Positions 3,449 through 40,140 of a stretch of 48,006 nucleotides of DNA are shown piece after piece. The stretch covers positions 1 through 48,006 of the IMG/VR virus record IMGVR_UViG_2541047905_000004, one strand, 5' to 3'. This DNA is from a virus (Duplodnaviria; Heunggongvirae; Uroviricota; Caudoviricetes). The notes under the pieces were generated by a model. That model had not been told where the DNA came from, did not search any database, and saw only the letters and a list, made by a program, of their open reading frames with translations. The position numbers were made by a program, and so were the translations under genes. Position 1 is the stretch's first letter. Each line of letters starts with the position of its first letter.

Positions 3449-4302
3449 GCACCATCCTGAAATGGGCGGGAAATAAAACTGCCATAATGTCCGAACTAAA
3501 AAAACATCTTCCTGCTGGCCCGCGACTGGTTGAACCTTTCGCGGGTTCCTGTGCTGTGATGATGGAGACGGATTATCCCAGCTATCTGGTTGCGGATATT
3601 AATCCTGATTTAATCAACCTCTATAAAAAGGTTGCCGCTGATTGTGAATCGTTTATATCTCGCGCCAGAGTTTTATTTGAGATCGCAAACAGGGAGGTGG
3701 CTTATTACAACATAAGGCAGGAGTTTAATTACTCAACTGAAATTACTGATTTCATGAAAGCGGTATATTTCCTGTATCTCAATCGTCACGGTTACCGTGG
3801 TTTATGTCGCTATAACAAGAGCGGGCATTTCAACATTCCCTACGGTAATTATAAAAATCCGTATTTCCCTGAAAAAGAAATTCGCGCATTTGCAGAAAAG
3901 GCCCAGCGAGCAACGTTTATCTGCGCCAGCTTTGATGAAACGCTGGCGATGTTGAAGGCGGGGGATGTGGTGTATTGCGATCCGCCGTATGACGGTACGT
4001 TTTCCGGCTATCACACTGACGGCTTCACTGAAGATGACCAGTATCACCTGGCATCTGTTCTTGAACATCGGTCATCAGAAGGACATCCGGTCATTGTTTC
4101 TAACAGTGACACATCCCTGATCCGTTCGCTGTATCGCAATTTTACTCACCACTACATCAAGGCAAAACGCAGCATCGGTGTGGCAGCTGGCGAGGGTAAA
4201 TCAGCAACAGAAATCATTGCTGTTTCCGGGCCGCGCTGCTGGGTGGGATTTGATTATTCGCGTGGCGTGGATAGTTCTGCCGTGTACGGAGTACGTGCAT
4301 GA
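3445..4302 (+). CDS. dam: DNA adenine methyltransferase (Dam-like, D12 class N6-MTase)
   Basis: ATG at 3445 after GGAGG (track ORF starts earlier). Motifs KWAGNK, FAGSCAV and DPPY in [11 protein letters not shown]...[10 protein letters not shown]...[11 protein letters not shown]. Overlaps the TraR stop and the A start (ATGA-type couplings). Confidence 0.8.
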
Positions 4303-6713
4303 GTCATGCCGATATGAACAACTGCTGCGGCTTTAACGAAGCTGCCGCATCGTTCTCATGGAACAGCTCGAAAAAGGCCATTAACCCTTATCTGGACCCG
4401 GTGGAAGTTGCGCCGGTTTCTACGCTTTCAAACCTGATCACTCTGTACGCTGCCGATAACGAGCAGGAACAGCTGCGCCGTGAGGCGCTGAGTGATCAGG
4501 TCTGGGAGCGTTATTTCTTTAATGAATCCCGTGATCCTGTCCAGCGCGAAATGGAACAGGATAAGCTCATTAGTCGGGCAAAGCTGGCGCATGAGCAGCA
4601 GCGTTTTAATCCGGATATGGTCATTCTGGCGGACGTCAACGCCCAGCCTTCCCATATCAGCAAGCCGCTGATGCAACGTATTGAATACTTCAGCAGCCTG
4701 GGCAGGCCAAAGGCTTATTCCCGCTATTTACGTGAGACGATTAAGCCATGTCTGGAACGACTGGAGCATGTACGCGACAGTCAGCTATCTGCATCTTTTC
4801 GCTTTATGGCAAGCCATGAAGGGCTGGACGGCCTGCTGATCCTGCCTGAAATGAGTCAGGATCAGGTGAAACGCCTGTCCACCCTGGTAGCTGCGCATAT
4901 GAGTATGTGCCTTGATGCCGCTTGTGGCGATTTGTATGCTACCGATGACGTTAAGCCAGAAGAAATCCGCAATACATGGGAAAGGGTGGCAGCGGAAACC
5001 CTGCGTCTGGATGTCATCCCGCCTGCGTTTGAGCAACTCCGTCGGAAAAGAAACCGCCGTAAACCCGTGCCCTATGAACTCATTCCGGGTTCGCTGGCGC
5101 GTATGTTGTGCGCCGACTGGTGGTATCGGAAATTATGGAAGATGCGTTGCGAATGGCGGGAAGAGCAGTTGCGTGCTGTCTGCCTTGTCAGCAAAAAAGC
5201 ATCTCCCTATGTCAGCTATGAAGCCGTGTTGCATAAACGTGAGCAGCGCCGTAAGTCGCTGGAGTTTTTCCGTTCTCATGAACTGGTGAACGAAGACGGC
5301 GACACGCTAGACATGGAGGATGTGGTAAACGCCAGCAGCAGCAACCCTGCGCATCGCCGCAATGAGATGATGGCCTGTGTTAAAGGTCTGGAGCTTATCG
5401 CGGAAATGCGCGGTGACTGCGCCGTTTTCTACACCATCACCTGTCCGTCACGTTTCCATTCCACGCTAAATAACGGCAGGCCCAACCCGACCTGGACAAA
5501 TGCGACGGTAAGACAAAGCAGCGATTATCTGGTCGGTATGTTTGCTGCATTTCGTAAGGCGATGCACAAAGCCGGGTTGCGCTGGTATGGCGTGCGGGTG
5601 GCTGAGCCGCATCACGACGGCACAGTTCACTGGCACCTGTTGTGTTTCATGCGCAAAAAAGACCGCCGCGCCATTACAGCATTGTTGCGTAAGTTTGCTA
5701 TCCGTGAAGACCGCGAGGAGCTGGGCAATAACACGGGGCCGCGCTTTAAGTCTGAGCTGATTAACCCGCGCAAAGGAACGCCGACAAGCTACATAGCGAA
5801 ATACATCAGTAAGAACATTGACGGGCGTGGTCTGGCTGGCGAGATCAGCAAGGAAACGGGTAAATCTCTGCGTGATAACGCTGAATACGTGAATGCCTGG
5901 GCGTCTTTGCATCGTGTTCAGCAATTCCGCTTCTTTGGCATTCCGGGGCGTCAGGCTTACCGTGAACTGCGATTGCTGGCTGGTCAGGCGGTAAGGCAAA
6001 AGGGGGACAAAAAAGCAGGTGCGCCGGTACTGGATAACCCGCGCCTTGATGCCATCCTGGCTGCTGCTGATGCTGGTTGTTTTGCCACCTACATCATGAA
6101 GCAGGGCGGCGTACTGGTTCCCCGTAAATATCACCTCATCAGAACCGCTTATGAAATCAACGAAGAGCCGACCGCCTATGGCGATCACGGCATTCGTATT
6201 TATGGCATCTGGTCACCCATTGCAGAGGGCAAGATCTGCACTCATGCAGTGAAGTGGAAAATGGTTCGTAAAGCCGTTGACGTTCAGGAGGCGGCAGCCG
6301 ACCAGGGCGCTTGCGCCCCTTGGACTCGTGGCAATAACTGTCCCCTTGCTGAAAATTTGAACCAACAGGAGAAAGATAAATCAGCTGATGGGGACACTAG
6401 AACGGACATTAACCGCATGGATGACAAGGAGTTGCACGATTACCTGCACAGTATGAGCAAAAAAGAGCGCCGGGAACTGGCAGCAAGGTTACGCCTGGTT
6501 AAACCGAAACGGCGTAAAGACTACAAACAGCGAATTACAGACCATCAGCGACTGCAGCTCGTCTATGAGCTGAAGTCCAGAGGATTTGATGGTAGCGAGA
6601 AAGAGGTCGATTTACTCCTTCGCGGCGGCAGTATTCCGTCAGGAGCAGGCCTGCGTATCTTCTATCGGAACCAGCGTTTGCGGGAAGATGATAAGTGGCG
6701 GGATCTGTATTAA
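4299..6713 (+). CDS. A: P2/186-type replication initiation protein A (rolling-circle HUH endonuclease)
   Basis: 804 aa; HUH-like VHWHLLCF and tyrosine motif YIAKYISK; position after the early regulators as in P2/186. Confidence 0.85.
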
Positions 6714-6805
6714 TTACGCGGGTTAACAATTCGTGCTCTTAATAATACCAGGCATATCAGGCTGATGAACGTAAAAAAACGTTTTACATCAGTAAGATTA
6801 TTATA

Positions 6806-6825
6806 TACTGTAAATATAAACAGTG
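6806..6825. promoter_or_regulatory. LexA (SOS) box candidate
   Basis: TACTGTAAATATAAACAGTG contains CTG-N10-CAG in an AT-rich spacer, matching the TACTGT(AT)4ACAGTA consensus; 40 bp upstream of the 6866 ORF. Confidence 0.55.
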
Positions 6826-6865
6826 ATTATATATACAGTATTGCTTTGGTGTCATAGGAGGAAAG

Positions 6866-7054
6866 ATGCAGGACTATTTTTTGGAGTCTTTGAAGCTCCA
6901 GCGCATTGATTTTTTTCTTAAGCTTGTAGCGGCTAGTGAGTGTAGTGATGAAGAGAAGGGGCTGGCTCTGCAGTGGGTTTCTGAGTTGACTGATGAACTC
7001 ATGGCAAAAATCAGAACTCACGAATACAACCGCTCAATGGATGTCATCAGTTGA
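6866..7054 (+). CDS. Hypothetical SOS-regulated small protein (62 aa)
   Basis: ATG at 6866 after AGGAGG; first ORF downstream of the LexA box. Confidence 0.4.
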   Translation: MQDYFLESLKLQRIDFFLKLVAASECSDEEKGLALQWVSELTDELMAKIRTHEYNRSMDVIS

Positions 7055-7064
7055 GGTGACTTTT

Positions 7065-7298
7065 ATGCGCATTGAAATAATGATCGATAAAGAGCAGAAG
7101 ATTAGCCAGTCTACCCTGGACGCTCTTGAATCAGAGCTTTACCGCAATCTGCGCCCCCTGTATCCCAAAACGGTAATTCGCATCCGCAAAGGTAGCTCTA
7201 ACGGTGTGGAACTGACCGGACTGCAACTGGACGAAGAAAGAAAACAAGTGATGAAAATTATGCAGAAGGTGTGGGAAGACGACAGCTGGCTGCATTAA
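7065..7298 (+). CDS. DinI-like protein (Tum-type antirepressor candidate)
   Basis: ATG at 7065 after GAGGTGA (track ORF starts earlier); MRIEIMIDKEQ...LDALESELYRNL...KIMQKVWEDDSWLH aligns by eye to E. coli DinI (MRIEV...DALAGEL...ILQETWESADDW). Confidence 0.6.
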   Translation: MRIEIMIDKEQKISQSTLDALESELYRNLRPLYPKTVIRIRKGSSNGVELTGLQLDEERKQVMKIMQKVWEDDSWLH

Positions 7299-7457
7299 GA
7301 AAAGTTGCTGGCGTCTGAACTTGGTTCTGGCGTCAGCAAGGTTGAACAACGAGTACAGTGAGGCGTTAGGTGTGGCGTTTATTTGATGAGTGAACGCCCG
7401 TTCTCCGACAGGTTCGGAGATTAAGGTTGAAACTACGGGCAAAATACCATCTTTTTC

Positions 7458-7883
7458 CTACTTAATTGAGTCCAGTAACAAGTTACAGTTACTCTCATTG
7501 TAGAGAGAACGAGCAATTAGTGTTACCTGCTTTCCATTCATTCCCGGCTTATCCCATAACACAGCTTCTTGCGACGCCACAAATTCAGCATAATCAATTA
7601 TGCGTTGTTCGTGATCTGGTTCCTCATAGCCAAAGTATGAGAGCGCATCGTTGTAAGCGTGGTAAGCTGCTTTCTGTAATATCTTGATATCGGCTGTAGG
7701 TACTTGCCCCGTGTAGCTAGGATCTAATTGTGTGCTACTGCCATAGAATGCACATGAAAGGTAAGATATTGATTTCTGTTGAGCTTTAGTTCCTTTCTCA
7801 TAGTTTTTAGCTGTTACCGCCTGAACTGGGACGCTAACAAAGCTTGCAACCAGAATTAAAATTAATACGTAAAAGCTTTTCAT
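7458..7883 (-). CDS. Secreted hypothetical protein (141 aa), AT-rich moron
   Basis: ATG at 7883 (rc) after GAGG; signal-peptide-like MKSFYVLILILVASFVSVPVQA; AT-rich; opposite strand to neighbours. Confidence 0.5.
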   Translation of the reverse strand: MKSFYVLILILVASFVSVPVQAVTAKNYEKGTKAQQKSISYLSCAFYGSSTQLDPSYTGQVPTADIKILQKAAYHAYNDALSYFGYEEPDHEQRIIDYAEFVASQEAVLWDKPGMNGKQVTLIARSLYNESNCNLLLDSIK

Positions 7884-8155
7884 TTTGACCTCAGCCGAAA
7901 CGTTAGAGAGACTATCGAAATTTGTAAAACCCGTGGCGATTCAGTTTGAGATCCTCCCCCTTACATGATTTTTAATCAAATATATGCTTTTGTAAGCATA
8001 CCTGTTAACCGAATTATTTATTTTTAGAGATCTTCCGACATACTGATTATACCCGCTGAGGAGTTCACCTTGCGTAAAGTCCGATTCGCTTTACTCGTTT
8101 GTGCATGTCTATGCTGCATGAGATTGCATGATCGTTTGAGGATCGTTTTTGCTAA

Positions 8156-8180
8156 GGCCCGCCAGAACTGGCGGGCTTTT
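8156..8180 (+). terminator. Rho-independent terminator-like hairpin with no upstream ORF
   Basis: GGCCCGCCAG-AACT-CTGGCGGGC followed by TTTT on the + strand. Confidence 0.4.
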
Positions 8181-8225
8181 GCGTAGATCATGCACCTGCA
8201 TGAAAACCACTACATAAAGCGGGCA

Positions 8226-8244
8226 GGCGTGGCGGGGATACGAG
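8226..8244. other. Candidate cos (cohesive end) site
   Basis: GGCGTGGCGGGGATACGAG resembles the 19-nt P2-family cos as I remember it (GGCGAGGCGGGGAAAGCAC); location between the replication/tum region and the portal gene is as expected. Confidence 0.3.
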
Positions 8245-8350
8245 CGCGCGGGATGACATAACAGATTGAATTGAAAAATATTGACTAAATGTAAAATGCG
8301 AAGGATATTTAGTCCCTCTATGAAGTTTTAGATATGGAAAATGATAGGTT

Positions 8351-8641
8351 ATGAAAACGATATATAGCTATGATTACCAATACTTGCCTAAAGGGTCCAC
8401 AAGACCAATTGATGACGGAGATATAGTAGGCTGTTCGTCAGAAGAAAATCCTTTTCTTCTACTTCCCAATGTAGGTGATTTTGTCTCTATATGTAATGAC
8501 AATAGTCGGTCTTCGTTTAGTGGTATTGTTAAAACTAGATATTTCACTTATACGAGAATAAGTGAGGAGTGCGTACAATGTTCAATTAATATTGTAGTTG
8601 CAGAATCTGATGTAGATTGGGGTACTCTTATTAAAGAATAA
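8351..8641 (+). CDS. Hypothetical small protein (96 aa), AT-rich, with 4 Cys
   Basis: ATG at 8351; AT-rich; Cys at GCSSEE, ICND and two in ECVQCS could form a small metal-binding fold (inference). Confidence 0.45.
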   Translation: MKTIYSYDYQYLPKGSTRPIDDGDIVGCSSEENPFLLLPNVGDFVSICNDNSRSSFSGIVKTRYFTYTRISEECVQCSINIVVAESDVDWGTLIKE

Positions 8642-8696
8642 TATGGGGCGTCTGCGTAAGTGGGCGCTATTAAAATAAAATGGAATCTTGTAATGT

Positions 8697-9383
8697 ATGG
8701 TTAAATTTAATAATAACTTTGATTTTCCATTGGTAACAATACTGACGGTGTTGCTATTTATATTGGCATATTTTTTTAAACTTGGTGAGGCCGTTTATTT
8801 TGGTTATCCAGCAATACTTATATCATTAGATTTAACGAGTGTTGCGAATATTTCTTTAAAGCTTTTTTTCTATTTTGGTAGTATTGTTATAGGTGTTTTT
8901 AATTTTATTTTGAATGATGGTGCGATTAAACTTAATAAAATTAAGTATGTTCTTTGGATTTTTATTGCCATAACAATATTTTCAGTTTTTTTAAGTTTTA
9001 AGAGGGGGGAGAAAGACTTAGTTAACTATCTTAATGGTGGTCTTTTTGGTATTTGTTCATGGTTGGTGGTAATGTCGTTGTTCAAAACATTTGAACGAAG
9101 TGGTGATTTGATTAATATAGATTTCGTATATGCCATATTAACGGTTTTCTTTATGTCAGTTACTAGTTTTCTTGGAGGGATTAATTATCATAATCAGTTT
9201 GCATCTGTTCTATGGAAAACCTTGGATGGAAAAATAGTAGTTGGAGAATATAACGGCAATTTTGTTTTAAAGAAATGCGTAGATGGCAAAGGGGTTTTTA
9301 GCTTTAGAGAGGTAAATGGTAGCGAATTTGTTGAGGTTGTAAATTATGTGGAAGGGAAGTTTAATCCAAGGTGCAATAGATAA
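8697..9383 (+). CDS. Hypothetical polytopic membrane protein (228 aa), AT-rich
   Basis: ATG at 8697; about five hydrophobic helices (LVTILTVLLFILAYFF, FYFGSIVIGVFNFIL, VLWIFIAITIFSVFLSF, LFGICSWLVVMSLF, VYAILTVFFMSVTSFLGGI) followed by a roughly 60-aa soluble tail. Confidence 0.5.
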   Translation: MVKFNNNFDFPLVTILTVLLFILAYFFKLGEAVYFGYPAILISLDLTSVANISLKLFFYFGSIVIGVFNFILNDGAIKLNKIKYVLWIFIAITIFSVFLSFKRGEKDLVNYLNGGLFGICSWLVVMSLFKTFERSGDLINIDFVYAILTVFFMSVTSFLGGINYHNQFASVLWKTLDGKIVVGEYNGNFVLKKCVDGKGVFSFREVNGSEFVEVVNYVEGKFNPRCNR

Positions 9384-9406
9384 AGGTGCCAGGGCACCTT
9401 TCAAAT
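9384..9406. terminator. Bidirectional hairpin between convergent genes
   Basis: AAAGGTGCC-AGG-GCACCTTT between the stops of the 8697..9383 ORF and the portal gene. Confidence 0.4.
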
Positions 9407-9411
9407 AATTA

Positions 9412-10437
9412 TTAAAGTTTGTAGGCGTCAAAACTGATAACAGTTTTACCTAACCATATATTCAATTCTTCAAATCTTTTTTGCAATGATGTTAGTTCAT
9501 TTCTTACAAAAACATTACTCGCCTTCTCCACATCCCCAAACCCTCCAACATTATTAGGCATAATCCCCATCATTTGCGGCGGCACGCGGTGCGCAGCCAT
9601 CATGTCATCCCGGCTCACGTTCTTGATATTCAAAAATTCATCCTTTGCCGCGACTTCTGACAGAGGAATAATCTGAAGCCCGTCCTTTTTGCCGTTAGGC
9701 GAGTACATAAACAGGTTGCGGAAGTTGCCTGGACCTTTGGCGCTTTTCATCGCGTTGCGGAGGTTGTTCACATCTTCCTGGTTCTGCGCGGCGTCGGTCA
9801 TATACATGATGAAGCCAGCATGACTGCCGTTAATGTAATACTTTCGACGGAACAGCGTGGCGGACTCATTGAGCAGGGCGGACGGAATGGCAGAAAGATA
9901 GCCGGGCAAGCCGTAGATCTCCTGGTTAATGTCCGGTTCCATCAGATGAAAAATGCTGCCTTTCGTGAACTGATATGGCTGGGTTGTCATACCGTATTGC
10001 ACAAACCAGTAGGTATCCAAGTCTAACCCGCGTCGGGTGTATTTTGCCAGCGCAGGCTCAAGGGCGATAACTTCACCGAAGCGGTTCGTGCGTTTCTCCA
10101 GGTAGGCGTTACCAAAAACCAAATAGTCCTGCACAAAACGCGAAAAAGCCTGCTGGCTGAGCAGCGGGTGAGGGATGTAGGTGCTGGTCAAAATGTTGCA
10201 TTTCACCGCAATCGGTGAGCTGTGATGCACGGCGGCACGGAAGGTTCGTGCCAGCCCGTCAAAGCTGACGGGCGGCTCATACCAGCGATCCATCTGTACG
10301 CATTCCACATAGTCCAGCAGTTCGCGGCGGTCCAGAACAGGAACGGGATCACCGAAGCTGAATGCTTCGGCTGAAGTCTGGCTTTTATGCTGGTTCTGGT
10401 TCGTCGACGCAGCGCGGTTCTTCTTACTCTTTCCCAT
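9412..10437 (-). CDS. Q: Portal protein (P2 gpQ-like)
   Basis: ATG at 10435-10437 (rc) overlapping the P stop (TGATG); track ORF starts 3 nt earlier at TTG. MGKSKKNRAAS...; size and order Q-P as in P2/186. Confidence 0.85.
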   Translation of the reverse strand: MGKSKKNRAASTNQNQHKSQTSAEAFSFGDPVPVLDRRELLDYVECVQMDRWYEPPVSFDGLARTFRAAVHHSSPIAVKCNILTSTYIPHPLLSQQAFSRFVQDYLVFGNAYLEKRTNRFGEVIALEPALAKYTRRGLDLDTYWFVQYGMTTQPYQFTKGSIFHLMEPDINQEIYGLPGYLSAIPSALLNESATLFRRKYYINGSHAGFIMYMTDAAQNQEDVNNLRNAMKSAKGPGNFRNLFMYSPNGKKDGLQIIPLSEVAAKDEFLNIKNVSRDDMMAAHRVPPQMMGIMPNNVGGFGDVEKASNVFVRNELTSLQKRFEELNIWLGKTVISFDAYKL

Positions 10438-12203
10438 CAAAAAATCTCCACAATATTGCTGGCATTGGCGGACTCGCCCTGCAGCGGTTCGTTAAACAGT
10501 GCGTGCATTGTTGCCCAGGCCAGATCGGCATGGCTGGCTTCTTCGCTGCGGCTGGCTTCATAGGTCGGGCGGTTGCCGCTGGCGGTGGTGGCGCGACGGA
10601 TTGCCATGAATGACTGCGCAATGTCGGTGTGTCCGGCGTCAAATTCCAGGCGGCGGTGACTGATAATGTCGTAGGCCTTGAGTACCAGGGCGTTTTTAAC
10701 GTTGGGGTTGTAGACAAACTCCCGGACGGCAGGAAAAAACGCTTTCACGTTCTCGTAAACCCCGTGACCGACGCCGGTCGAGTCGATGCCGATATAGGTC
10801 ACGTTATACTGTTCGGTCAGTTTTTTGATGGCGTCAGCCTGGGCGCGGAAGTCCATTCCGCGCCACTGGTGACGCTCAAGAATGCGGAACTTACCGCCCT
10901 GCACGGCTGGCGGTGCCACCACCACGCATCCGGCGCTGTCGCCGTTCTGCGTACCTTTTGCCGGGTCATAACCGATCCACACTTCGCGCCAGCCAAACGG
11001 GCGCAGGGCCAGTGCATGAAAGTCGGTCCAGACTTCCCAACTGTCCACCATGCACGCCTGCAGCTCGCTGAGCGGGAACACGGACGCGAGATCGTCCACG
11101 AACTCACACATCAGCAGGTTCTGGTATTCGTCCGGGCTGTATTCCATGCGCAACTGGTCAAGGTCGAACAGGTTACAGCCGCCGCGCACCGCATCTTCTA
11201 CGGTGACTATCTGGCGGTATTGCCCGTCTGCGCACAGCAGGCCGGGGGCCAGATTGCTGTGGGACAGGTCGATGTCCACCTTGTCGGCTTTGTTGCGTCC
11301 ACGGTTGAACAGCGCACCGGACCAGAACGGATAAGCACTGTGGGTCAGGCTGGATGGCGTGGAAAAATAGGTTTGTCGCCATTTTTTGTGAATAGCCATA
11401 CCGGAAGCCACTTTGCGCAGCTCCTGGAATTTCGGGATCCAGAAATATTCATCCAGATACAGGTTGCCGTGGTAACTCTGGGCAGTGCGGGCATTGGTGC
11501 CGAGGAAGTAAAGCGTGGCCCCGTTAGGAAGCACCATCGGATCACCTTTCAGCTCCACCTCGACTTCTTTGGCAAAATCGATGATGTACTGCTTAAAGAC
11601 GTGAGCCTGTGCCTTACTGGCAGAAAGGAAAATCTGGTTACGTCCGGTAAGCAGGGCGTCAATCAGGGCTTCACGGGCAAAATAGAAGGTCGCGCCGATC
11701 TGGCGTGACTTTAGCAGGTTGCGGATGCGGTTGGTTTTTCCGGCTTCCCACCAGTGGCGCTGGTAGTTGAACATGGAGGAATGGAAGATTTCTTCCAGCT
11801 TCTCAATCTGTTCATCGGTGAAAACGTTCTTTTCCGGCTGACGACGCGGGCCTTTGTTGCGGTTGGCGACGTTAGGGTTTAAGTCGGCTTCGTTGCCGCC
11901 ATTGTTAAACTTGCCGATCCGCGCGTGGCGCTCCGACTGGCGCGCCAGCAGGTCAATCTCTTTGAAATCTTTCCCTTCTTTGTGCTCCTTCATAATGAGC
12001 TGGCAGTAGCGTGCGGCGGTGGTGAGCTGCATCTGATCCAGCGGCCCATAGTCACCCCACTTGTCGCGTTTTTTCCAGCTGTGAACGGTTGCAACTTTCT
12101 CGCCCAGCATTTCAGCAATGCGGGCTACGCGGTATCCCTGAAAGTACAGCAGCATGGCCTGCCGACGGGGATCGAGATCTGCGGGTGTCAGTGTGGTGTT
12201 CAT
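10437..12203 (-). CDS. P: Terminase large (ATPase) subunit (P2 gpP-like)
   Basis: 588 aa, ATG at 12203 (rc); divergent from O as in P2; N-terminus MNTTLTPADLDPRRQAMLLYFQGYRVARIAEMLG recalled as gpP-like. Confidence 0.85.
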   Translation of the reverse strand: MNTTLTPADLDPRRQAMLLYFQGYRVARIAEMLGEKVATVHSWKKRDKWGDYGPLDQMQLTTAARYCQLIMKEHKEGKDFKEIDLLARQSERHARIGKFNNGGNEADLNPNVANRNKGPRRQPEKNVFTDEQIEKLEEIFHSSMFNYQRHWWEAGKTNRIRNLLKSRQIGATFYFAREALIDALLTGRNQIFLSASKAQAHVFKQYIIDFAKEVEVELKGDPMVLPNGATLYFLGTNARTAQSYHGNLYLDEYFWIPKFQELRKVASGMAIHKKWRQTYFSTPSSLTHSAYPFWSGALFNRGRNKADKVDIDLSHSNLAPGLLCADGQYRQIVTVEDAVRGGCNLFDLDQLRMEYSPDEYQNLLMCEFVDDLASVFPLSELQACMVDSWEVWTDFHALALRPFGWREVWIGYDPAKGTQNGDSAGCVVVAPPAVQGGKFRILERHQWRGMDFRAQADAIKKLTEQYNVTYIGIDSTGVGHGVYENVKAFFPAVREFVYNPNVKNALVLKAYDIISHRRLEFDAGHTDIAQSFMAIRRATTASGNRPTYEASRSEEASHADLAWATMHALFNEPLQGESANASNIVEIF

Positions 12204-17779: not shown

Positions 17780-19576
17780 TCAGGATTGTGATAAATGTAT
17801 TAAACATTGACAAAAATATTTAATGTCGTCACATATTTCATCTTTATTCATGTGTTCCAAAACTTCATCTCGAGTAATTGAGAAGTTATGTTTTAGTGAA
17901 TTTTCGCCACTAATGAAAATTTCTTTTCCATGTGCGTCTTTTAAGGCTGCAGCTATATCTGTAGATGTTATCGAATCAGGGATAGCTAACGCATGTCTAT
18001 CTCTAAAGAAATTACGTATATCTTCTTCAGATGTGTCTGCAGCTCTTGCGATGGCTGATATATCTAGAAAGTAATTTTCAATGTGTCTGCGACGCCATTT
18101 CATGGCTAAAAAATCACTATCGCCGTGATTTGTTGATTTATCTTTAAGATCAGCTCCTACAGAATGGTCGCTATCATCATCACGATCGCGCATGCTAATG
18201 GCTTTTAAGTCAGGAATTTCATTTTTTAATTGTTTGTATAATTGAAATCTTTCTGAAGATTTTCCAGTCCAAAGCCATGTGACAATATTTTTGGGCCATG
18301 TTAGTTCTAACTTTTCAAATATTTTTTTTAGGAATCTTTCATCGCTAACACCTTCAACAATCAACAATTTTTTGTCTTCGGTAAGCTTATGGATTTTAGG
18401 GCTAAAGATCGTGCCAATTCCACTTAATAGACCTATTTTTTCATTATCAGATCCAAGGTATTTCCCTCTGGACTTTGATAGTGCCAAAATTTTCTGTGGT
18501 TCATAAGCCCTGATTAATTCAGTAGAGTGTGTTGCCAATAGGACCTGCTTTCCTTTTTTAATTGTTATCTCTTCTAAACGTTCAGTTAGATTTTTCTGTA
18601 ATTGTGTATGCAGGTGAGCATCTGGTTCATCTAGTAGAATGACATTAAATTCTTCTGATAAGGCCAATGTATATACACTTAACCATTGAAGAAAACCGCT
18701 TCCTTCAACCATAATATCTCTAGCATTGAAGTTTTTGTGTTTTTTAAATTGATAACCATTGACAACGCCAGCGACACATTCAATTTTTAAGTAACTATGA
18801 TATTGTTCATTAAATGGAGTTACTTCAAGTTTTAAAGAAAAAAGGTCAAAGAGTGTTTTTTGTAATATTTCCCAAGGATCTGTTTCCCTTAATAAATTAA
18901 GGTCTTTATTGGCGATTTTGTTTCGCCCTTCTTTTAACTTCCGGCGTTTGTTTTGATTCTCTAAGTGAATATCGTAAATAGAATTTCTGATTACTCCACC
19001 AGAAAGCCCCTGACCGATTAGTCGATTCCTCATTGCTGGGCTAAGACGGCTTTCTCGGTCTGTAATACCTGCAAATGGAGGGAGATAAGCGATCTGGGGT
19101 ATATTCTCATTATTTGGAGAACCATCGTCATTCTGTATTTCTTGTAAAGCAAGGTTGCTAGATGTATTTTTTATAAATAATCTATCATTTGCTAATGATA
19201 AACCGATCTCTAAAAACTTCTCATTTTTTAAAATATCATCCCAAAAAAGCTTTATCTTTAGAGTATAACCATCATCTTCTGTTTGTTTTTGAGATTTTAA
19301 ATTGGTCCATAAGTGGCTTAAAGACGGTATAAACATCGGCGTGAAATCGACAATGCCTAGTCCGACACCTTGATTTGTCGCATTTTCAGTCCAACTCACT
19401 CTTCCTTTTTCAATTTCTAAAAGAGTCTTACAGAATTGCCACGTTGCCATTGCTTGCAGTAACGATGACTTACCGGAATTGTTCCCGCCGACTAGGAGGC
19501 TTAATTCGTCATTTAATTGTATTGTTGAGTTTTTATATTTTTTGAATTTCTTAAGCTCTACTTTTTTTATGTACAT
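17780..19576 (-). CDS. ABC-type ATPase fused to a Toprim-like C-terminal domain (OLD-family / PARIS AriA-AriB-like); candidate anti-phage defence or exclusion gene
   Basis: 598 aa, ATG at 19576 (rc). Walker A GGNNSGKSS, signature-like GLSGG, Walker B ILLDEPDAHLH, H-loop LLATHS; C-terminal LLIVEGVSDERF and SMRDRDDDSD acidic motifs. AT-rich, opposite strand, inserted between S and V. Confidence 0.6.
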   Translation of the reverse strand: MYIKKVELKKFKKYKNSTIQLNDELSLLVGGNNSGKSSLLQAMATWQFCKTLLEIEKGRVSWTENATNQGVGLGIVDFTPMFIPSLSHLWTNLKSQKQTEDDGYTLKIKLFWDDILKNEKFLEIGLSLANDRLFIKNTSSNLALQEIQNDDGSPNNENIPQIAYLPPFAGITDRESRLSPAMRNRLIGQGLSGGVIRNSIYDIHLENQNKRRKLKEGRNKIANKDLNLLRETDPWEILQKTLFDLFSLKLEVTPFNEQYHSYLKIECVAGVVNGYQFKKHKNFNARDIMVEGSGFLQWLSVYTLALSEEFNVILLDEPDAHLHTQLQKNLTERLEEITIKKGKQVLLATHSTELIRAYEPQKILALSKSRGKYLGSDNEKIGLLSGIGTIFSPKIHKLTEDKKLLIVEGVSDERFLKKIFEKLELTWPKNIVTWLWTGKSSERFQLYKQLKNEIPDLKAISMRDRDDDSDHSVGADLKDKSTNHGDSDFLAMKWRRRHIENYFLDISAIARAADTSEEDIRNFFRDRHALAIPDSITSTDIAAALKDAHGKEIFISGENSLKHNFSITRDEVLEHMNKDEICDDIKYFCQCLIHLSQS

Positions 19577-21562: not shown

Positions 21563-22160
21563 TCTGCTGCCACCGGGTTCAACACCACTGGAGCGCCGAC
21601 TGGCGCAAACCTGCAGCGGGATTTCTGATCTGCAGGTGCCGCTTCGTGACTTGTGGAATCCGGCAACCTGCCCGGTCAGTTTCCTGCCTTATCTCGCCTG
21701 GGCGTTCTCTGTGGATCGCTGGGACGAGGGCTGGACAGAAAGCGTCAAGCGCCAGGTGGTGAAGGATGCTTTTTATATTCATCAGCATAAAGGGACCACC
21801 AGTGCCGTGCGTCGGGTGGTGGAGCCGTTCGGCTTTCTGATCCGCATTATTGAGTGGTGGCAGACCGGAGAGACACCGGGCACGTTTCGTCTGGATATCG
21901 GCGTGCAGGACCAGGGCATCACTGAAGATACCTATCTGGAACTTGAGCGACTGATAAGCGATGCCAAACCATGTAGCCGTCACATGATCGGCATGTCCAT
22001 CAACCTGCAGACCAGCGGCCCGCATTGGGTGGGAGCCGCCAGCTATCTTGGCGAAGAAATCACGATCTATCCGTATATCAACGAAACAATTATTTCCGGC
22101 GGCACCGCGCATGAAGGCGGGGCGGTCCATGTTATTGACACAATGAGAGTGAATCCATGA
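21555..22160 (+). CDS. I: Baseplate / tail formation protein I (gpI-like)
   Basis: ATG at 21555 after GGAGG; 201 aa; between J and H. Confidence 0.8.
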
Positions 22161-23557
22161 GCACAAAATTTTATACCCTGCTGACGGATATTGGCGCGGC
22201 GAAACTTGCCAGCGCCGCCGCGCTCGGTGTGCCTTTAAAAATTACCCATATGGCGGTCGGCGATGGCGGCGGAACATTGCCAACGCCGGACGCAAAGCAG
22301 ACAGCATTAGTAAATGAGAAACGCCGGGCTGCGCTGAATATGCTCTATATCGACCCGCAGAACAGCAGCCAGATTATTGCTGAACAGGTGATCCCTGAAA
22401 ACGAGGGCGGTTGGTGGATACGTGAAGTGGGCCTGTTTGATGAGTCCGGGGCATTGATTGCCGTGGGCAACTGCCCGGAAAGCTATAAGCCGCAACTGGC
22501 TGAAGGCAGCGGGCGTACCCAGACCGTGCGCATGGTGCTGATTACCAGCAGCACGGACAATATCACCCTGAAAATCGACCCTGCCGTAGTGCTGGCAACC
22601 CGCAAGTATGTGGATGACAAGGTACTGGAGCTGAAGGTGTACGTAGATGACCTGATGGCAAAACATCTTGCTGCACAGGACCCACATTCACAGTACGCGC
22701 CAAAAGCCAGCCCGACATTTACCGGAACCCCCAAAGCGCCAACGCCAGCGGCGGGGAATAATACCACGCGGGTTGCGACCACTGCGTTTGTACAGGCGGC
22801 ACTGACGGCCCTTATTAATGGTGCGCCAGCCACGCTGGACACGCTGAAAGAAATAGCCGCAGCCATTAACAATGATCCGAATTTCAGTACCACCATTAAC
22901 AATGCGCTGGCACTAAAAGCACCGTTGTCGAGTCCGGCACTCACCGGAACGCCAACAGCCCCCACGGCGGCGCAGTCGGTCAACAATACACAGATTGCCA
23001 CTACGGCTTTTGTGAAATCGGCGATTGCAGGAATGGTGGGTTCTGCACCTGCTGCACTGGATACACTGAACGAACTGGCGGCGGCACTGGGGAATGATCC
23101 GAACTTTGCCACGACAATGCTTAATGCGCTGGCAGGTAAACAACCGCTGGACAATACGCTTACCAATTTGAGTGGAAAGGATGTGGCTGGTCTTCTCGCA
23201 TACCTTGGTTTGGGAAAAGCGGCTAAAAGGAATGTAGGGACAGGGGCGAATCAGATACCTGATATGGGTAGCTTCACGCTTTCTGTTTCAGGTACTGGAT
23301 ATCAAAAATTACCATCAGGTTTTATTCTTCAGTGGGGCTCAATCGGCGCACCAGGCATTGCACAGGATGTAGTAACCCATTTCCCGATTGCATTTCCAAA
23401 CAGATGTCTGCGTGTTTTGGTCTCACAAGACTACACACCAGATAGCGGGGCTGTTGGTTATATTGCCTGTGCAGGTTTTAGTCCCGACCCGGTTAAATTT
23501 ATATCCAGAGCCAGTACTCCTGGCCTCGGCGCTTCATTTTTAGCGTTAGGCTGTTAA
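22157..23557 (+). CDS. H: Tail fibre protein H, variant 1 (constant N-terminal part plus Mu/P1 S-type C-terminal module)
   Basis: 466 aa; N-terminus [18 protein letters not shown]...MAVGDGGG typical of P2 gpH; C-terminal 114 aa (from 23216) unique to this copy, with [13 protein letters not shown]. Confidence 0.85.
23193..23218. other. Candidate serine-invertase crossover site (hix/gix/cix/pix-like), left
   Basis: TTCTCGCATACC-TT-GGTTTGGGAAAA: two 12-bp imperfect inverted half-sites (9/12) around a central dinucleotide; inverted copy of the right site with 25/26 identity; lies exactly at the constant/variable junction of H. Confidence 0.55.
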
Positions 23558-23578
23558 TTTAGCTATATGGAGTGAAAA

Positions 23579-24019
23579 ATGAATTACATATATTCCGCGA
23601 CTACAAACTCTTTCTATCCGCTGGAGATGAAAGAGGATTACACTCAAGCTGACTCATGGCCAGATGATGCTGTTGAAGTTGATGAGCAAGTGTATATTGA
23701 GTTTTCCGGATTACCGCCGAAAGGAAAAATCCGTATCGCTGGAGAAAATGGTTTTCCTGCATGGTCTGAAATTCCACCACCAACACATGAGGAACAGATT
23801 GCTGCAGCCGAACTGGAAAAGCAGCAACTGATTAATCAGGCCAACGATTATATGAACAGTAAACAATGGCCTGGTAAAGCGGCTATTGGCCGGCTGAAAG
23901 GTGAGGAACTGGCGCAATATAATTTGTGGCTGGATTATCTGGACGCACTGGAACTGGTCGATACTTCCGGTGCGCCAGATATTGAATGGCCTACGCCTCC
24001 GGCAGTTCAGGCCAGATGA
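23579..24019 (+). CDS. Tail fibre assembly protein (Tfa / gpG-like), cognate to H variant 1
   Basis: ATG at 23579, 21 nt after the H stop, with GGAGTGA; C-terminal WLDYLDAL...WPTPP Tfa-type motif. Confidence 0.75.
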   Translation: MNYIYSATTNSFYPLEMKEDYTQADSWPDDAVEVDEQVYIEFSGLPPKGKIRIAGENGFPAWSEIPPPTHEEQIAAAELEKQQLINQANDYMNSKQWPGKAAIGRLKGEELAQYNLWLDYLDALELVDTSGAPDIEWPTPPAVQAR

Positions 24020-24584
24020 CGTCCGGCGCTGTGCTGGTATCTGTTGCCGTCACCGCGTCAATGTAATCCAGCACAGCGTTAAGTCGGGTGTTTTCTGGCT
24101 GCGTCAGCTTCCGCCCAGCCTGTAATTTCAGTTGAATCAGACTGATGGAAGCCATTGCAGCATCAATCAGCGACTGGCGCTGTGCTTCTGCCGCTTCTAC
24201 TGCGGCGCTATGCTGTGCCTCGGTATCCGTCACCCATTTCTCACCATCCCATTTATCGTATGGCGTTAACGGTGAAAGCGTGACATAACCGTCTTTGATG
24301 GCACCGATATAATCCACTGTAACAGCTGCGCCATTTTCAGTTGAGTAAACGGTCTCATTGCGATGGTCTTCTTCATGGCTCCATCCCTTACCCGTAAATA
24401 CTGCCACTTTTCCCGGAATGTTTTCGCCCGGGTCAATACCAGTGGAACAGGCGGGTATACTTACGCCAGTATTAATATATTCATCAGACCAGCCGGTATA
24501 TTCATACGTTACTGCATTATAATAAAAACAACGCATATCGCCCGGCACTGTAGCCAGCCCATTTTCATCAAAAACAGGTTTCAT
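23991..24584 (-). CDS. Tail fibre assembly protein (Tfa / gpG-like), cognate to H variant 2
   Basis: ATG at 24584 (rc) overlapping the H-variant-2 stop (TAATG); C-terminal VLDYIDAV...WPELP Tfa motif; 3' end overlaps the other Tfa by 29 bp. Confidence 0.75.
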   Translation of the reverse strand: MKPVFDENGLATVPGDMRCFYYNAVTYEYTGWSDEYINTGVSIPACSTGIDPGENIPGKVAVFTGKGWSHEEDHRNETVYSTENGAAVTVDYIGAIKDGYVTLSPLTPYDKWDGEKWVTDTEAQHSAAVEAAEAQRQSLIDAAMASISLIQLKLQAGRKLTQPENTRLNAVLDYIDAVTATDTSTAPDVIWPELPEA

Positions 24585-26164
24585 TATTTAGCCCTCACCA
24601 GAAAGTTAAATGCAATATTTCGTGGACGGGTTTCTGTATCTACATTTCCACTAATTTCACCATAACGTTTAACACTACGAGAGCTAAGAGCTCGTAGTGA
24701 GGAAGGCACCTTAAGACCGGGTTCGTCCGTTTTAACTATTCCCCCGTCACCGTATGTGGCCAGTATTCCTGGGTTTACTCCCTCCCGTGCACTTCCTGCG
24801 GCAAGCCCGTCCCCCGTCCACAACTCCATATTGTGTGCATGATCCATAATTGTGTGTGATTGCCCTGAAAGTAGGGTACGTCCGACATCAATCCCGCGCC
24901 CATCATCCCAGATACGAATGAAATCACCCCGTGCGTCAGGTAATGCTAGCGCCGGAAACACTTTCGCCAGCACAGGGTAATCAGTGGCAGAGAATTTCGC
25001 GCCGTTGAACTTCAAAAACACCATACTGGACCAACTGTCGATTACAGTATTTGGCATTGCGGCGGACGGCCAGAAGAACGGAACGCCAATAGCTGGAGCA
25101 CCTTCTCCCAAACCAAGGTATGCGAGAAGACCAGCCACATCCTTTCCACTCAAATTGGTAAGCGTATTGTCCAGCGGTTGTTTACCTGCCAGCGCATTAA
25201 GCATTGTCGTGGCAAAGTTCGGATCATTCCCCAGTGCCGCCGCCAGTTCGTTCAGTGTATCCAGTGCAGCAGGTGCAGAACCCACCATTCCTGCAATCGC
25301 CGATTTCACAAAAGCCGTAGTGGCAATCTGTGTATTGTTGACCGACTGCGCCGCCGTGGGGGCTGTTGGCGTTCCGGTGAGTGCCGGACTCGACAACGGT
25401 GCTTTTAGTGCCAGCGCATTGTTAATGGTGGTACTGAAATTCGGATCATTGTTAATGGCTGCGGCTATTTCTTTCAGCGTGTCCAGCGTGGCTGGCGCAC
25501 CATTAATAAGGGCCGTCAGTGCCGCCTGTACAAACGCAGTGGTCGCAACCCGCGTGGTATTATTCCCCGCCGCTGGCGTTGGCGCTTTGGGGGTTCCGGT
25601 AAATGTCGGGCTGGCTTTTGGCGCGTACTGTGAATGTGGGTCCTGTGCAGCAAGATGTTTTGCCATCAGGTCATCTACGTACACCTTCAGCTCCAGTACC
25701 TTGTCATCCACATACTTGCGGGTTGCCAGCACTACGGCAGGGTCGATTTTCAGGGTGATATTGTCCGTGCTGCTGGTAATCAGCACCATGCGCACGGTCT
25801 GGGTACGCCCGCTGCCTTCAGCCAGTTGCGGCTTATAGCTTTCCGGGCAGTTGCCCACGGCAATCAATGCCCCGGACTCATCAAACAGGCCCACTTCACG
25901 TATCCACCAACCGCCCTCGTTTTCAGGGATCACCTGTTCAGCAATAATCTGGCTGCTGTTCTGCGGGTCGATATAGAGCATATTCAGCGCAGCCCGGCGT
26001 TTCTCATTTACTAATGCTGTCTGCTTTGCGTCCGGCGTTGGCAATGTTCCGCCGCCATCGCCGACCGCCATATGGGTAATTTTTAAAGGCACACCGAGCG
26101 CGGCGGCGCTGGCAAGTTTCGCCGCGCCAATATCCGTCAGCAGGGTATAAAATTTTGTGCTCAT
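24584..26164 (-). CDS. H: Tail fibre protein H, variant 2 (same constant N-terminus plus tail-collar-type C-terminal module)
   Basis: 526 aa; first ~347 aa identical to variant 1; unique C-terminus (coded 24584..25105) contains LPDARGDFIRIWDDGRGID...SGQSHTIMDHAH, typical of phage tail collar domains. Confidence 0.85.
   Translation of the reverse strand: MSTKFYTLLTDIGAAKLASAAALGVPLKITHMAVGDGGGTLPTPDAKQTALVNEKRRAALNMLYIDPQNSSQIIAEQVIPENEGGWWIREVGLFDESGALIAVGNCPESYKPQLAEGSGRTQTVRMVLITSSTDNITLKIDPAVVLATRKYVDDKVLELKVYVDDLMAKHLAAQDPHSQYAPKASPTFTGTPKAPTPAAGNNTTRVATTAFVQAALTALINGAPATLDTLKEIAAAINNDPNFSTTINNALALKAPLSSPALTGTPTAPTAAQSVNNTQIATTAFVKSAIAGMVGSAPAALDTLNELAAALGNDPNFATTMLNALAGKQPLDNTLTNLSGKDVAGLLAYLGLGEGAPAIGVPFFWPSAAMPNTVIDSWSSMVFLKFNGAKFSATDYPVLAKVFPALALPDARGDFIRIWDDGRGIDVGRTLLSGQSHTIMDHAHNMELWTGDGLAAGSAREGVNPGILATYGDGGIVKTDEPGLKVPSSLRALSSRSVKRYGEISGNVDTETRPRNIAFNFLVRAK
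25103..25128. other. Candidate serine-invertase crossover site, right
   Basis: TTCTCCCAAACC-AA-GGTATGCGAGAA; resembles hixL as I recall it (TTCTTGAAAACCAAGGTTTTTGATAA); inverted relative to the left site. Confidence 0.55.
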
Positions 26165-28744: not shown

Positions 28745-30541
28745 ATGTACATAAAAAAAGTAGAGCTTAAGAAATTCAAAAAATATAAAAACTCAACAAT
28801 ACAATTAAATGACGAATTAAGCCTCCTAGTCGGCGGGAACAATTCCGGTAAGTCATCGTTACTGCAAGCAATGGCAACGTGGCAATTCTGTAAGACTCTT
28901 TTAGAAATTGAAAAAGGAAGAGTGAGTTGGACTGAAAATGCGACAAATCAAGGTGTCGGACTAGGCATTGTCGATTTCACGCCGATGTTTATACCGTCTT
29001 TAAGCCACTTATGGACCAATTTAAAATCTCAAAAACAAACAGAAGATGATGGTTATACTCTAAAGATAAAGCTTTTTTGGGATGATATTTTAAAAAATGA
29101 GAAGTTTTTAGAGATCGGTTTATCATTAGCAAATGATAGATTATTTATAAAAAATACATCTAGCAACCTTGCTTTACAAGAAATACAGAATGACGATGGT
29201 TCTCCAAATAATGAGAATATACCCCAGATCGCTTATCTCCCTCCATTTGCAGGTATTACAGACCGAGAAAGCCGTCTTAGCCCAGCAATGAGGAATCGAC
29301 TAATCGGTCAGGGGCTTTCTGGTGGAGTAATCAGAAATTCTATTTACGATATTCACTTAGAGAATCAAAACAAACGCCGGAAGTTAAAAGAAGGGCGAAA
29401 CAAAATCGCCAATAAAGACCTTAATTTATTAAGGGAAACAGATCCTTGGGAAATATTACAAAAAACACTCTTTGACCTTTTTTCTTTAAAACTTGAAGTA
29501 ACTCCATTTAATGAACAATATCATAGTTACTTAAAAATTGAATGTGTCGCTGGCGTTGTCAATGGTTATCAATTTAAAAAACACAAAAACTTCAATGCTA
29601 GAGATATTATGGTTGAAGGAAGCGGTTTTCTTCAATGGTTAAGTGTATATACATTGGCCTTATCAGAAGAATTTAATGTCATTCTACTAGATGAACCAGA
29701 TGCTCACCTGCATACACAATTACAGAAAAATCTAACTGAACGTTTAGAAGAGATAACAATTAAAAAAGGAAAGCAGGTCCTATTGGCAACACACTCTACT
29801 GAATTAATCAGGGCTTATGAACCACAGAAAATTTTGGCACTATCAAAGTCCAGAGGGAAATACCTTGGATCTGATAATGAAAAAATAGGTCTATTAAGTG
29901 GAATTGGCACGATCTTTAGCCCTAAAATCCATAAGCTTACCGAAGACAAAAAATTGTTGATTGTTGAAGGTGTTAGCGATGAAAGATTCCTAAAAAAAAT
30001 ATTTGAAAAGTTAGAACTAACATGGCCCAAAAATATTGTCACATGGCTTTGGACTGGAAAATCTTCAGAAAGATTTCAATTATACAAACAATTAAAAAAT
30101 GAAATTCCTGACTTAAAAGCCATTAGCATGCGCGATCGTGATGATGATAGCGACCATTCTGTAGGAGCTGATCTTAAAGATAAATCAACAAATCACGGCG
30201 ATAGTGATTTTTTAGCCATGAAATGGCGTCGCAGACACATTGAAAATTACTTTCTAGATATATCAGCCATCGCAAGAGCTGCAGACACATCTGAAGAAGA
30301 TATACGTAATTTCTTTAGAGATAGACATGCGTTAGCTATCCCTGATTCGATAACATCTACAGATATAGCTGCAGCCTTAAAAGACGCACATGGAAAAGAA
30401 ATTTTCATTAGTGGCGAAAATTCACTAAAACATAACTTCTCAATTACTCGAGATGAAGTTTTGGAACACATGAATAAAGATGAAATATGTGACGACATTA
30501 AATATTTTTGTCAATGTTTAATACATTTATCACAATCCTGA
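28745..30541 (+). CDS. OLD/PARIS-like ABC ATPase-Toprim fusion (mirror copy)
   Basis: Mirror of 17780..19576; identical 598-aa translation. Confidence 0.6.
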   Translation: MYIKKVELKKFKKYKNSTIQLNDELSLLVGGNNSGKSSLLQAMATWQFCKTLLEIEKGRVSWTENATNQGVGLGIVDFTPMFIPSLSHLWTNLKSQKQTEDDGYTLKIKLFWDDILKNEKFLEIGLSLANDRLFIKNTSSNLALQEIQNDDGSPNNENIPQIAYLPPFAGITDRESRLSPAMRNRLIGQGLSGGVIRNSIYDIHLENQNKRRKLKEGRNKIANKDLNLLRETDPWEILQKTLFDLFSLKLEVTPFNEQYHSYLKIECVAGVVNGYQFKKHKNFNARDIMVEGSGFLQWLSVYTLALSEEFNVILLDEPDAHLHTQLQKNLTERLEEITIKKGKQVLLATHSTELIRAYEPQKILALSKSRGKYLGSDNEKIGLLSGIGTIFSPKIHKLTEDKKLLIVEGVSDERFLKKIFEKLELTWPKNIVTWLWTGKSSERFQLYKQLKNEIPDLKAISMRDRDDDSDHSVGADLKDKSTNHGDSDFLAMKWRRRHIENYFLDISAIARAADTSEEDIRNFFRDRHALAIPDSITSTDIAAALKDAHGKEIFISGENSLKHNFSITRDEVLEHMNKDEICDDIKYFCQCLIHLSQS

Positions 30542-39624: not shown

Positions 39625-39679
39625 ACATTACAAGATTCCATTTTATTTTAATAGCGCCCACTTACGCAGACGCCCCATA

Positions 39680-39970
39680 TTATTCTTTAATAAGAGTACC
39701 CCAATCTACATCAGATTCTGCAACTACAATATTAATTGAACATTGTACGCACTCCTCACTTATTCTCGTATAAGTGAAATATCTAGTTTTAACAATACCA
39801 CTAAACGAAGACCGACTATTGTCATTACATATAGAGACAAAATCACCTACATTGGGAAGTAGAAGAAAAGGATTTTCTTCTGACGAACAGCCTACTATAT
39901 CTCCGTCATCAATTGGTCTTGTGGACCCTTTAGGCAAGTATTGGTAATCATAGCTATATATCGTTTTCAT
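39680..39970 (-). CDS. Hypothetical Cys-containing small protein (mirror copy)
   Basis: Mirror of 8351..8641. Confidence 0.45.
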   Translation of the reverse strand: MKTIYSYDYQYLPKGSTRPIDDGDIVGCSSEENPFLLLPNVGDFVSICNDNSRSSFSGIVKTRYFTYTRISEECVQCSINIVVAESDVDWGTLIKE

Positions 39971-40076
39971 AACCTATCATTTTCCATATCTAAAACTTCA
40001 TAGAGGGACTAAATATCCTTCGCATTTTACATTTAGTCAATATTTTTCAATTCAATCTGTTATGTCATCCCGCGCG

Positions 40077-40095: not shown

Positions 40096-40140
40096 TGCCC
40101 GCTTTATGTAGTGGTTTTCATGCAGGTGCATGATCTACGC

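Follow-up and report, generated by a model that had tools for sequence, protein, structure and literature searches.

The locus described here raises the question of whether three AT-rich genes between the replication genes and the portal gene of an Escherichia coli P2-like prophage make up one new anti-phage system or are independent pieces of cargo in the same interval. The window analysed is the whole 48,006-nt IMG/VR virus record IMGVR_UViG_2541047905_000004, and coordinates throughout are positions in that record. The genes for the proteins of 141, 96 and 228 residues are referred to as sec141, small96 and mem228, respectively. All three open reading frames (ORFs) were found at the coordinates and on the strands given in an initial annotation of this DNA (Table 1), which had read them as a single moron island holding a secreted protein and a pair formed by a small soluble protein and a membrane effector. 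To judge from sequence comparison, they are better described as separately exchangeable morons than as one demonstrable new defence system. The reading that we favour, with a rough probability of 0.4, is that the modules are separable and that mem228 would be a stand-alone exclusion protein acting at the envelope. The hotspot location and the adjacency of small96 and mem228 are kept from the earlier reading, but neither obligate pairing nor a single island that includes sec141 is.

The interval, which adjoins cos, has replication gene A on one side and the portal gene Q on the other, and its cargo differs among otherwise closely related prophages. This is the gpA-gpQ interval of P2-like phages (the tin/old or 'TO' hotspot), a hotspot of anti-phage systems (Rousset et al. 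2022, PMC9122126) that has since been revisited (PMC13586616). The AT-richness noted in the initial annotation is evident from the G+C content (GC), which is 0.29–0.34 over positions 8501–9500 and 0.40 over 7501–8000, versus 0.50–0.60 in the flanks. The region is AT-rich accessory cargo, ordinary in kind, in a known variable and defence-rich hotspot. It resembles other cargo of this hotspot in lying in the same interval beside cos, in its AT-rich composition, in being present or absent among near-identical prophages, and in having known systems alongside it in relatives, where the left-of-cos neighbours include PD-Lambda-5 (L064) and a SIR2 gene (L051). The stretch from 8200 to 8250 is 100% identical to a sequence annotated in phage Cartapus as 'putative cos site, homologous to the cos of P2 phage' and is also identical in more than 1200 E. 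coli genomes, and 23 of the 24 nucleotides of the cos core are invariant across eight related P2-like loci. Given this position of cos, sec141 lies on the tin/old side, and small96 and mem228 occupy the gap that separates cos from the 3' end of the portal gene. The placement at the tin/old hotspot proposed for all three genes therefore holds for the cos-proximal gpA-gpQ interval as a whole and for sec141, but not for the other two genes: tin and old are found on the side of cos that faces gpA, these two on the side that faces the portal gene.

The prophage of E. coli GD33 is 99.8% identical to the window over positions 6700–8250 and carries sec141, and its portal gene directly follows cos without the small96/mem228 pair, so that the pair can be recognised as a 1.1-kb insertion. 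In E. coli prophages sharing an identical pair, the slot to the left of cos is occupied by sec141, by a 386-aa gene or by a 243-aa gene. The idea of one island is contradicted by this exchange of left-of-cos cargo and by cos itself, which splits the region. As far as sequence comparison goes, sec141 is independent of the pair and nothing ties them together. An IMG/VR P2-like phage (L064:828–3341) carries PD-Lambda-5 subunit A (E = 4e-169) and a 294-aa neighbour to the left of cos and small96/mem228 to the right, an arrangement from which the two sides of cos would act as separate cargo slots. The pair gave no match by megablast or blastn in 5426 complete RefSeq E. coli genomes and is present in draft E. 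coli assemblies and in assemblies of sequencing runs; exact-sequence look-ups assign small96 and mem228 to Escherichia coli, always as 'hypothetical' or 'putative membrane protein'. sec141 is found in 101 of the 5426 complete genomes, invariably annotated as a hypothetical protein, and its family comprises seven clusters, all from Enterobacterales. By inspection, its N-terminus reads MK, a hydrophobic stretch of 18 residues, and then VQA|V, with a hydropathy peak of 2.35 over residues 1–26 and no lipobox cysteine, a putative signal peptide of the kind proposed initially. sec141 would accordingly be described as a predicted exported protein in the tin/old slot to the left of cos. A sequence search against solved structures gave no match for it, and its accession is listed among the raw loci of Rousset Table S5A as 'hypothetical + DinI + hypothetical', among loci not assayed there.

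All three are real genes, to judge from homologues in other genera with identities down to 29–69%. Scans of Pfam, PHROGs and NCBIfam gave no virion or replication homology for any of them, in line with the initial description, and no match that would name them was found in Pfam, NCBIfam, PADLOC, PDB or BFVD. The suggestion of a defence module found no support in the defence-model search, in which PADLOC returned no family for any of the three proteins at E values up to 1; they match neither tin, old nor any PADLOC model, in which they differ from known cargo of the P2 hotspot. The INPHARED phage collection holds no copy of the three genes, a plasmid collection gave for them a single short match in small96 (140 bp at 72% identity), and no Rfam family or tRNA was found in the region. 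None of the three proteins was found among the curated and tested systems in the available part of Rousset Table S5B.

More can be said for a tie between small96 and mem228. The two genes are adjacent and co-directional, with a spacing of 41–55 bp, in E. coli, Enterobacter, Kosakonia, Pantoea and three metagenomic or IMG/VR lineages, about seven in all, which bears out the arrangement proposed for them, but each is also found without the other, so that they do not form an obligate unit. In at least six P2-like phages (L079–L084, L055/56), a small96 homologue with 60–70% identity is found by itself between cos and the portal gene, and 12 of the 5426 complete E. coli genomes likewise have a homologue alone there. 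Homologues of mem228 with 29–40% identity lie beside cos without small96 in four lineages (L059/66, L062/65, L060/67/68 and L061). In Klebsiella and Nissabacter the small gene (67–75% identity) is followed by an unrelated soluble protein of 298 residues and there is no mem228; at the nucleotide level, the window matches the Klebsiella prophage from cos to the small96 stop codon, where the match breaks off at position 8644, and then again in the portal gene. In a rough tree of the small gene, the Klebsiella protein with the 298-aa partner falls inside the clade with membrane partners, which points to a partner swap. Judging from such rough trees, one ancestral linkage with partner replacement would account for much of the association of small96 with mem228. 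The 298-aa protein (L001:6397–7293, L052:5413–6309) contains the motifs CxxC...C/H and HYH and matched nothing in Pfam or PADLOC, and its family is common (43–74% identity) in diverse viral contigs without small96 (L094–L106), where it makes up another uncharacterised cargo family.

The alternative most directly concerned by these data is a two-component abortive-infection or exclusion system in which small96 would sense infection, or restrain and gate mem228, as RexA gates RexB. The retention of the pair in about seven lineages, down to 40% identity for the membrane protein and 69% for the small one, at a site where neighbouring cargo turns over fast, is what such a system would predict; the occurrence of each gene without the other at that same site is not, and neither is the partner swap in the small-gene tree, where one ancestral linkage explains much. 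The pair also travels jointly in Kosakonia-type phages, in which it is found to the left of the functional cos, but this move is a block duplication. A Kosakonia P2-like prophage has two copies of the cos-flanking sequence around the pair (L005:5800–5908 and 7242–7381), the upstream copy being degenerate and without the cos core, which suggests either acquisition of the interval along with a cos end or a duplication of cos. Since the degenerate copy indicates that a block duplication moved the pair across cos, it provides no independent evidence of linkage, and the presence of the pair on both sides of cos, at one point taken as such evidence, was downgraded when the copy was found. In other Proteobacteria, relatives of small96 have an unrelated membrane protein 52–203 bp downstream in four loci (L012, L013, L018, L022), which would fit a recurrent partnership, but 4 of about 12 downstream membrane proteins is close to the genomic background. 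The conserved disordered tail of small96, WGxLIKE, could be a docking motif, whereas the terminator hairpin that small96 has of its own and the absence of any match to RexA/RexB or another PADLOC system count the other way. Together with the topology of mem228 considered below, these observations leave a two-component system rather unlikely.

small96 encodes an acidic, predicted cytoplasmic protein. Its four cysteines are present as reported initially, but C77 alone is conserved in the family, and on that comparison it is no cysteine-motif protein. The elements TTGAC and GATATT/TATT of its sigma-70-like promoter are kept in five lineages (the window and the Enterobacter, Klebsiella, Pantoea and IMG/VR loci), and the hairpin past its stop codon is found at the same place, with stem changes that compensate each other, in eight of nine enterobacterial loci, among them loci where small96 has the 298-aa partner or none. 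In loci in which small96 directly adjoins the portal gene, this hairpin takes the form of a strong bidirectional terminator. The conserved promoter and hairpin therefore mark small96 as a self-contained unit, which has both the promoter and terminator of its own and the deviant base composition (GC 0.29–0.34 against about 0.55) expected of a moron. As we picture it, the unit would consist of promoter, gene and terminator hairpin and lie some 55 nt rightward of the cos cut, and small96 would more probably be a neighbour or optional accessory of mem228 than its obligate partner. Morons were defined for lambdoid phages, and in the P2-like Pseudomonas phage phiCTX the gene ctx, which encodes a pore-forming toxin, adjoins cos. 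The present arrangement is like these in being an autonomous promoter-gene-terminator unit of deviant composition between conserved genes beside cos; unlike ctx, the role of which is known, the genes here have no assigned function.

The small96 family extends well beyond P2-like phages, with 40 loci in representative genomes of Alpha-, Beta- and Gammaproteobacteria and cyanobacteria. One homologue (51% identity; L087:2064–6088) belongs to a phage with no relation to P2, where it lies between the large terminase and portal genes and is followed by a Mu F-like gene; the family recurs at packaging-module junctions, and also in neighbourhoods that resemble defence islands. Other homologues adjoin FRG/PDC-S15 or DitA-like genes, and in Candidatus Rhodoferax (L023:4995–5755) two tandem genes of the family, 165 bp apart, precede what by inspection appears to be a dCTP deaminase gene. 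A clade in Rhizomicrobium consists of a syntenic, stand-alone, single-copy chromosomal gene near icd, cinA and map, with no phage context. Being widespread, unnamed and repeatedly found beside terminase and portal genes, the family is a reasonable target for functional work.

These family data bear on whether any of the genes serves defence at all. Lysogenic conversion or phage-intrinsic roles might be considered instead, with sec141 and mem228 acting in the envelope or in stress and small96 in packaging or early infection, or, at the extreme, the genes being near-neutral passengers. The relative between terminase and portal genes in the unrelated phage and the conserved chromosomal genes of Rhizomicrobium would suit such roles, but the proteins of the Rhizomicrobium clade have no LIKE tail, and their function may be another. 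The uniformly 'hypothetical' database names agree with this explanation too, and, according to Rousset et al. (2022, PMC9122126), many hotspot cargoes are non-defensive, for example partition systems and a cytolethal distending toxin. On the other hand, the interval is dispensable and missing from most E. coli P2-like prophages, which argues against a core phage function, and its composition and pattern of presence and absence are typical of hotspot cargo. A later study of the P2 and P4 hotspots considers many uncharacterised hotspot genes probably antiviral, although only a minority in P2, and six of eight randomly chosen P4 hotspot loci of unknown function proved active (PMC13586616). We consider a non-defence role unlikely on balance, though less so than any of the other alternatives.

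The small96 protein is predicted to be all-beta. In a profile search its residues 14–50 weakly matched designed double-psi beta-barrel proteins (E = 0.006) along the motif 'P.D.G..V...VGDYV.I', no stretch being significant alone. A family-wide Pfam scan of 28 relatives yielded chance matches only. An AbrB/MazE-fold assignment was tried and dropped when hhalign comparison with MazE and AbrB was not significant, and homology of small96 to the C-terminal domain of mem228 was likewise compared and rejected. In a toxin-antitoxin or addiction module, small96 would be the labile, acidic, antitoxin-like member and mem228 or the 298-aa protein a toxin freed when host expression is shut off. A small acidic gene upstream of variable partners is the layout of promiscuous antitoxins, the weak barrel match covers a cradle-loop-like motif that is also typical of AbrB/MazE-fold proteins, and the C-terminal tail is disordered, acidic and contains tryptophan; we nevertheless rate this explanation as very improbable, and lower than any other considered here. 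A further possibility is that small96 is a portable, promiscuous sensor or regulator that teams with unrelated effectors, namely mem228, the 298-aa Cys/His-rich soluble protein and the single-transmembrane coiled-coil proteins of other Proteobacteria, the WGxLIKE tail providing the coupling. It would then represent an unrecognised modular exclusion family at packaging junctions and in defence islands. Taken as a whole this proposal is improbable, more so than a fixed two-component system.

mem228 is the gene to which an exclusion function is most readily attached. The five-helix membrane protein of the initial annotation is borne out by hydropathy and by an AlphaFold2 model, in which predicted helices at residues 11–35, 46–68, 79–103, 108–131 and 143–168 are followed by a beta domain at residues 170–214. 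An exhaustive profile search of 1.84 billion proteins recovered 28 representatives of the family, nearly all of about 230 residues with a few shorter fragments. Among 26 members, the mean number of Lys and Arg residues per segment alternates in a positive-inside manner, being 2.0 at the N-terminus, 0.08 in loop 1, 1.65 in loop 2, 0.19 in loop 3 and 2.12 in loop 4. In 24 of the 26, the C-terminal domain contains two cysteines and no more (C194 and C226). The invariant residues are concentrated in four places: the end of transmembrane (TM) helix 1 with loop 1 (GE[AS]x[YF]FGYP..LD), loop 3, the last part of TM5, and the C-terminal domain. mem228 is therefore modelled as an inner-membrane protein with its N-terminus in the cytoplasm and its C-terminus outside, the functional face of which, including a putatively disulfide-bonded domain, would be periplasmic. 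This topology sits poorly with gating by small96, as the predicted conserved surfaces of mem228 are periplasmic and its cytoplasmic loops short and poorly conserved, while small96 has no export signal. With lambda RexA/RexB the locus shares a soluble-protein gene beside a polytopic inner-membrane gene in a prophage, expressed independently of lytic genes. It differs in having no sequence match, in the small size (96 residues) and all-beta nature of small96, in the natural separability of the genes and in the periplasmic conserved face predicted for mem228.

Only about 28 nt lie between the 3' hairpin of small96 and the start codon of mem228, which leaves no room for a separate promoter, and mem228 is flanked by a hairpin on its downstream side only; transcription of mem228 would therefore most likely occur by read-through of the small96 hairpin. 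In the sequence of events that we propose, mem228 was inserted between that hairpin and the 3' end of the portal gene and is probably expressed at a low level by read-through. The protein would sit in the inner membrane with a cytoplasmic N-terminus and expose the loop-1 motif and the disulfide-bonded beta domain of about 60 residues to the periplasm. Its most likely role would be phage exclusion at the envelope without a partner, and it might, in the manner of a superinfection-exclusion protein, hinder the entry of a superinfecting phage genome at the periplasmic face of the inner membrane; in a less likely variant, it would instead collapse the membrane after sensing entry.

Wherever their context could be recovered, relatives of mem228 lie downstream of a cos core, within about 0.1–1.2 kb of it, in P2-like phages; one is in a P4-like satellite. 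In this satellite (L061:2881–7279), Psu and a cos core are followed by a mem228 relative (29% identity), the gene for a 421-aa TIR-domain protein and that for a P4-type integrase, with McrBC upstream, and the mem228 family is therefore also cargo of the P4 hotspot. A partial parallel is the validated P2-like phage system AC1, '2TM + 1TM + TIR' (Rousset et al. 2022, PMC9122126), in which a TIR protein likewise accompanies membrane proteins at the P2 hotspot. The membrane proteins of AC1 have one or two TM helices, however, and are by inspection unrelated in sequence to mem228; the window has no TIR gene, and TIR adjacency was seen only once in the mem228 family. A family-wide Pfam scan of 26 mem228 relatives gave chance matches only, and neither a sequence search against solved structures nor a BFVD fold search produced a match for mem228. 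A faint precomputed tag, 'PF27470 TfpB', on the Enterobacter homologue could not be reproduced in a Pfam scan and was set aside.

Phage P22 SieA and SieB, T4 Imm and Sp, and HK97 gp15 are membrane superinfection-exclusion proteins. mem228, the exclusion role of which is only proposed, is like them a phage- or prophage-encoded inner-membrane protein that would act alone at the envelope, but its predicted architecture of five TM helices and a two-cysteine periplasmic beta domain matches none of them, and no homology to SieA, SieB, Imm, Sp or gp15 was found in Pfam, PHROG, BFVD or PDB. SieB-type membrane proteins are catalogued cargo of the P2 hotspot (Rousset et al. 2022, PMC9122126).

Several observations weigh against a stand-alone exclusion protein. 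The confidence of the mem228 model is modest, with a predicted local distance difference test (pLDDT) score of 69 from a six-sequence alignment, and the topology is a prediction only. No homology of sec141, small96 or mem228 to any characterised exclusion or defence protein was found in the five resources searched (Pfam, NCBIfam, PADLOC, PDB and BFVD). Among P2 hotspot proteins of unknown function, 15–32% are predicted to be antiviral by machine-learning methods (PMC13586616). The prophage already has a PARIS/OLD-like ATPase gene, described below. Lastly, the identities of the small and membrane proteins diverge roughly in parallel (84/75%, 76/55%, 69/52% and 69/40%) and every mem228 homologue above about 50% identity has small96 upstream, and a functional link within that clade may therefore exist. 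If mem228, with or without small96, does exclude phages, it would represent a new and very rare family among prophage envelope defences; its periplasm-facing disulfide-bonded domain would be unusual, and the short gap between cos and the portal gene would be a cargo slot of its own within the P2 hotspot. Otherwise the locus would be one more case of the many hypothetical genes known to fill this hotspot.

The features of the region are compiled in Table 1. The window as a whole is a fold-back palindrome in which positions 315–23219 are the reverse complement of 25102–48006, the 22,905-bp arms being 99.996% identical with one mismatch, and the whole region is therefore present twice. The palindrome is most likely an assembly fold-back at an invertible segment rather than two prophages. 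Its 1.9-kb centre (23220–25101, within 22157–26164) is a tail-fibre invertible segment, in which one fibre N-terminus of about 355 residues is joined to two C-termini (ORFs of 466 and 526 residues), with two tail-fibre assembly genes (146 and 197 residues) in between in opposite orientations.

Table 1. Position, strand and description of features in and around the variable interval of the window.
Feature	Position	Strand	Remarks
Replication gene A (gpA)	4299–6713		P2-like backbone
Conserved hypothetical ORF, 62 aa	6866–7054	+	gpA-gpQ backbone, no cargo; WP_001154434 in E. coli GD33; in most loci of Rousset Table S5A
DinI-like gene	7065–7298	+	backbone; Pfam DinI, E = 1.3e-22; RefSeq product of 77 aa in the 99.8% identical E. 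coli locus
sec141, predicted Sec-exported protein, 141 aa	7458–7883	-	ORF with hydrophobic N-terminus; PHROG 7437, function unassigned
Promoter-like site upstream of sec141	7979–8008	-	TTAACA-18-TATATT; consensus scan, 10/12 matches
GC-rich terminator hairpin upstream of cos	8155–8184	+	GGCCCGCCAG-AACU-CUGGCGGGC then UUUU; -28.8 kcal/mol, z = -3.9
P2-type cos core	8226–8249		GGCGTGGCGGGGATACGAGCGCGC; one copy per arm of the window
Sigma-70-like promoter of small96	8281–8309	+	TTGACT-17-GATATT; consensus scan
small96, predicted acidic cytoplasmic all-beta protein, 96 aa	8351–8641	+	invariant loop motif LPNVGD[FY]V; C-terminal tail WGxLIKE
GC hairpin of small96, weak terminator or attenuator	8647–8668	+	5–9 nt past the small96 stop; -13.5 kcal/mol, z = -2.1
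mem228, predicted five-TM inner-membrane protein, 228 aa	8697–9383	+	predicted N-in, C-out; periplasmic two-cysteine beta domain at about 170–228
Hairpin between the convergent mem228 and portal genes, probable bidirectional terminator	9382–9401		AAAGGUGC-CAGG-GCACCUUU; z only -1.7
Portal gene (gpQ), right edge of the variable interval	9412–10440	-	Phage_portal family in all related loci
Terminase gene	10437–12203	-
Mirror copy of the region	38938–40863	opposite	position i maps to 48321-i

For the DinI-like gene, the mechanically called ORF begins at 6993, and the position listed is that of the RefSeq product. The hairpin upstream of cos lies 40 nt from the cos core, none of 200 shuffled sequences folds as well, and it is kept together with cos in related prophages. 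The hairpin at the far end of the interval overlaps the stop codon of mem228. Amid the late genes, an AT-rich gene (GC 0.33–0.39) at 17780–19576 on the minus strand, with its mirror at 28745–30541, encodes a 598-aa ABC-ATPase whose best PADLOC matches are to fused AriAB/PARIS (E = 8.5e-26), AriA and GajA. By these matches the gene can be recognised as a candidate for defence, and it occupies a second cargo site of the prophage.

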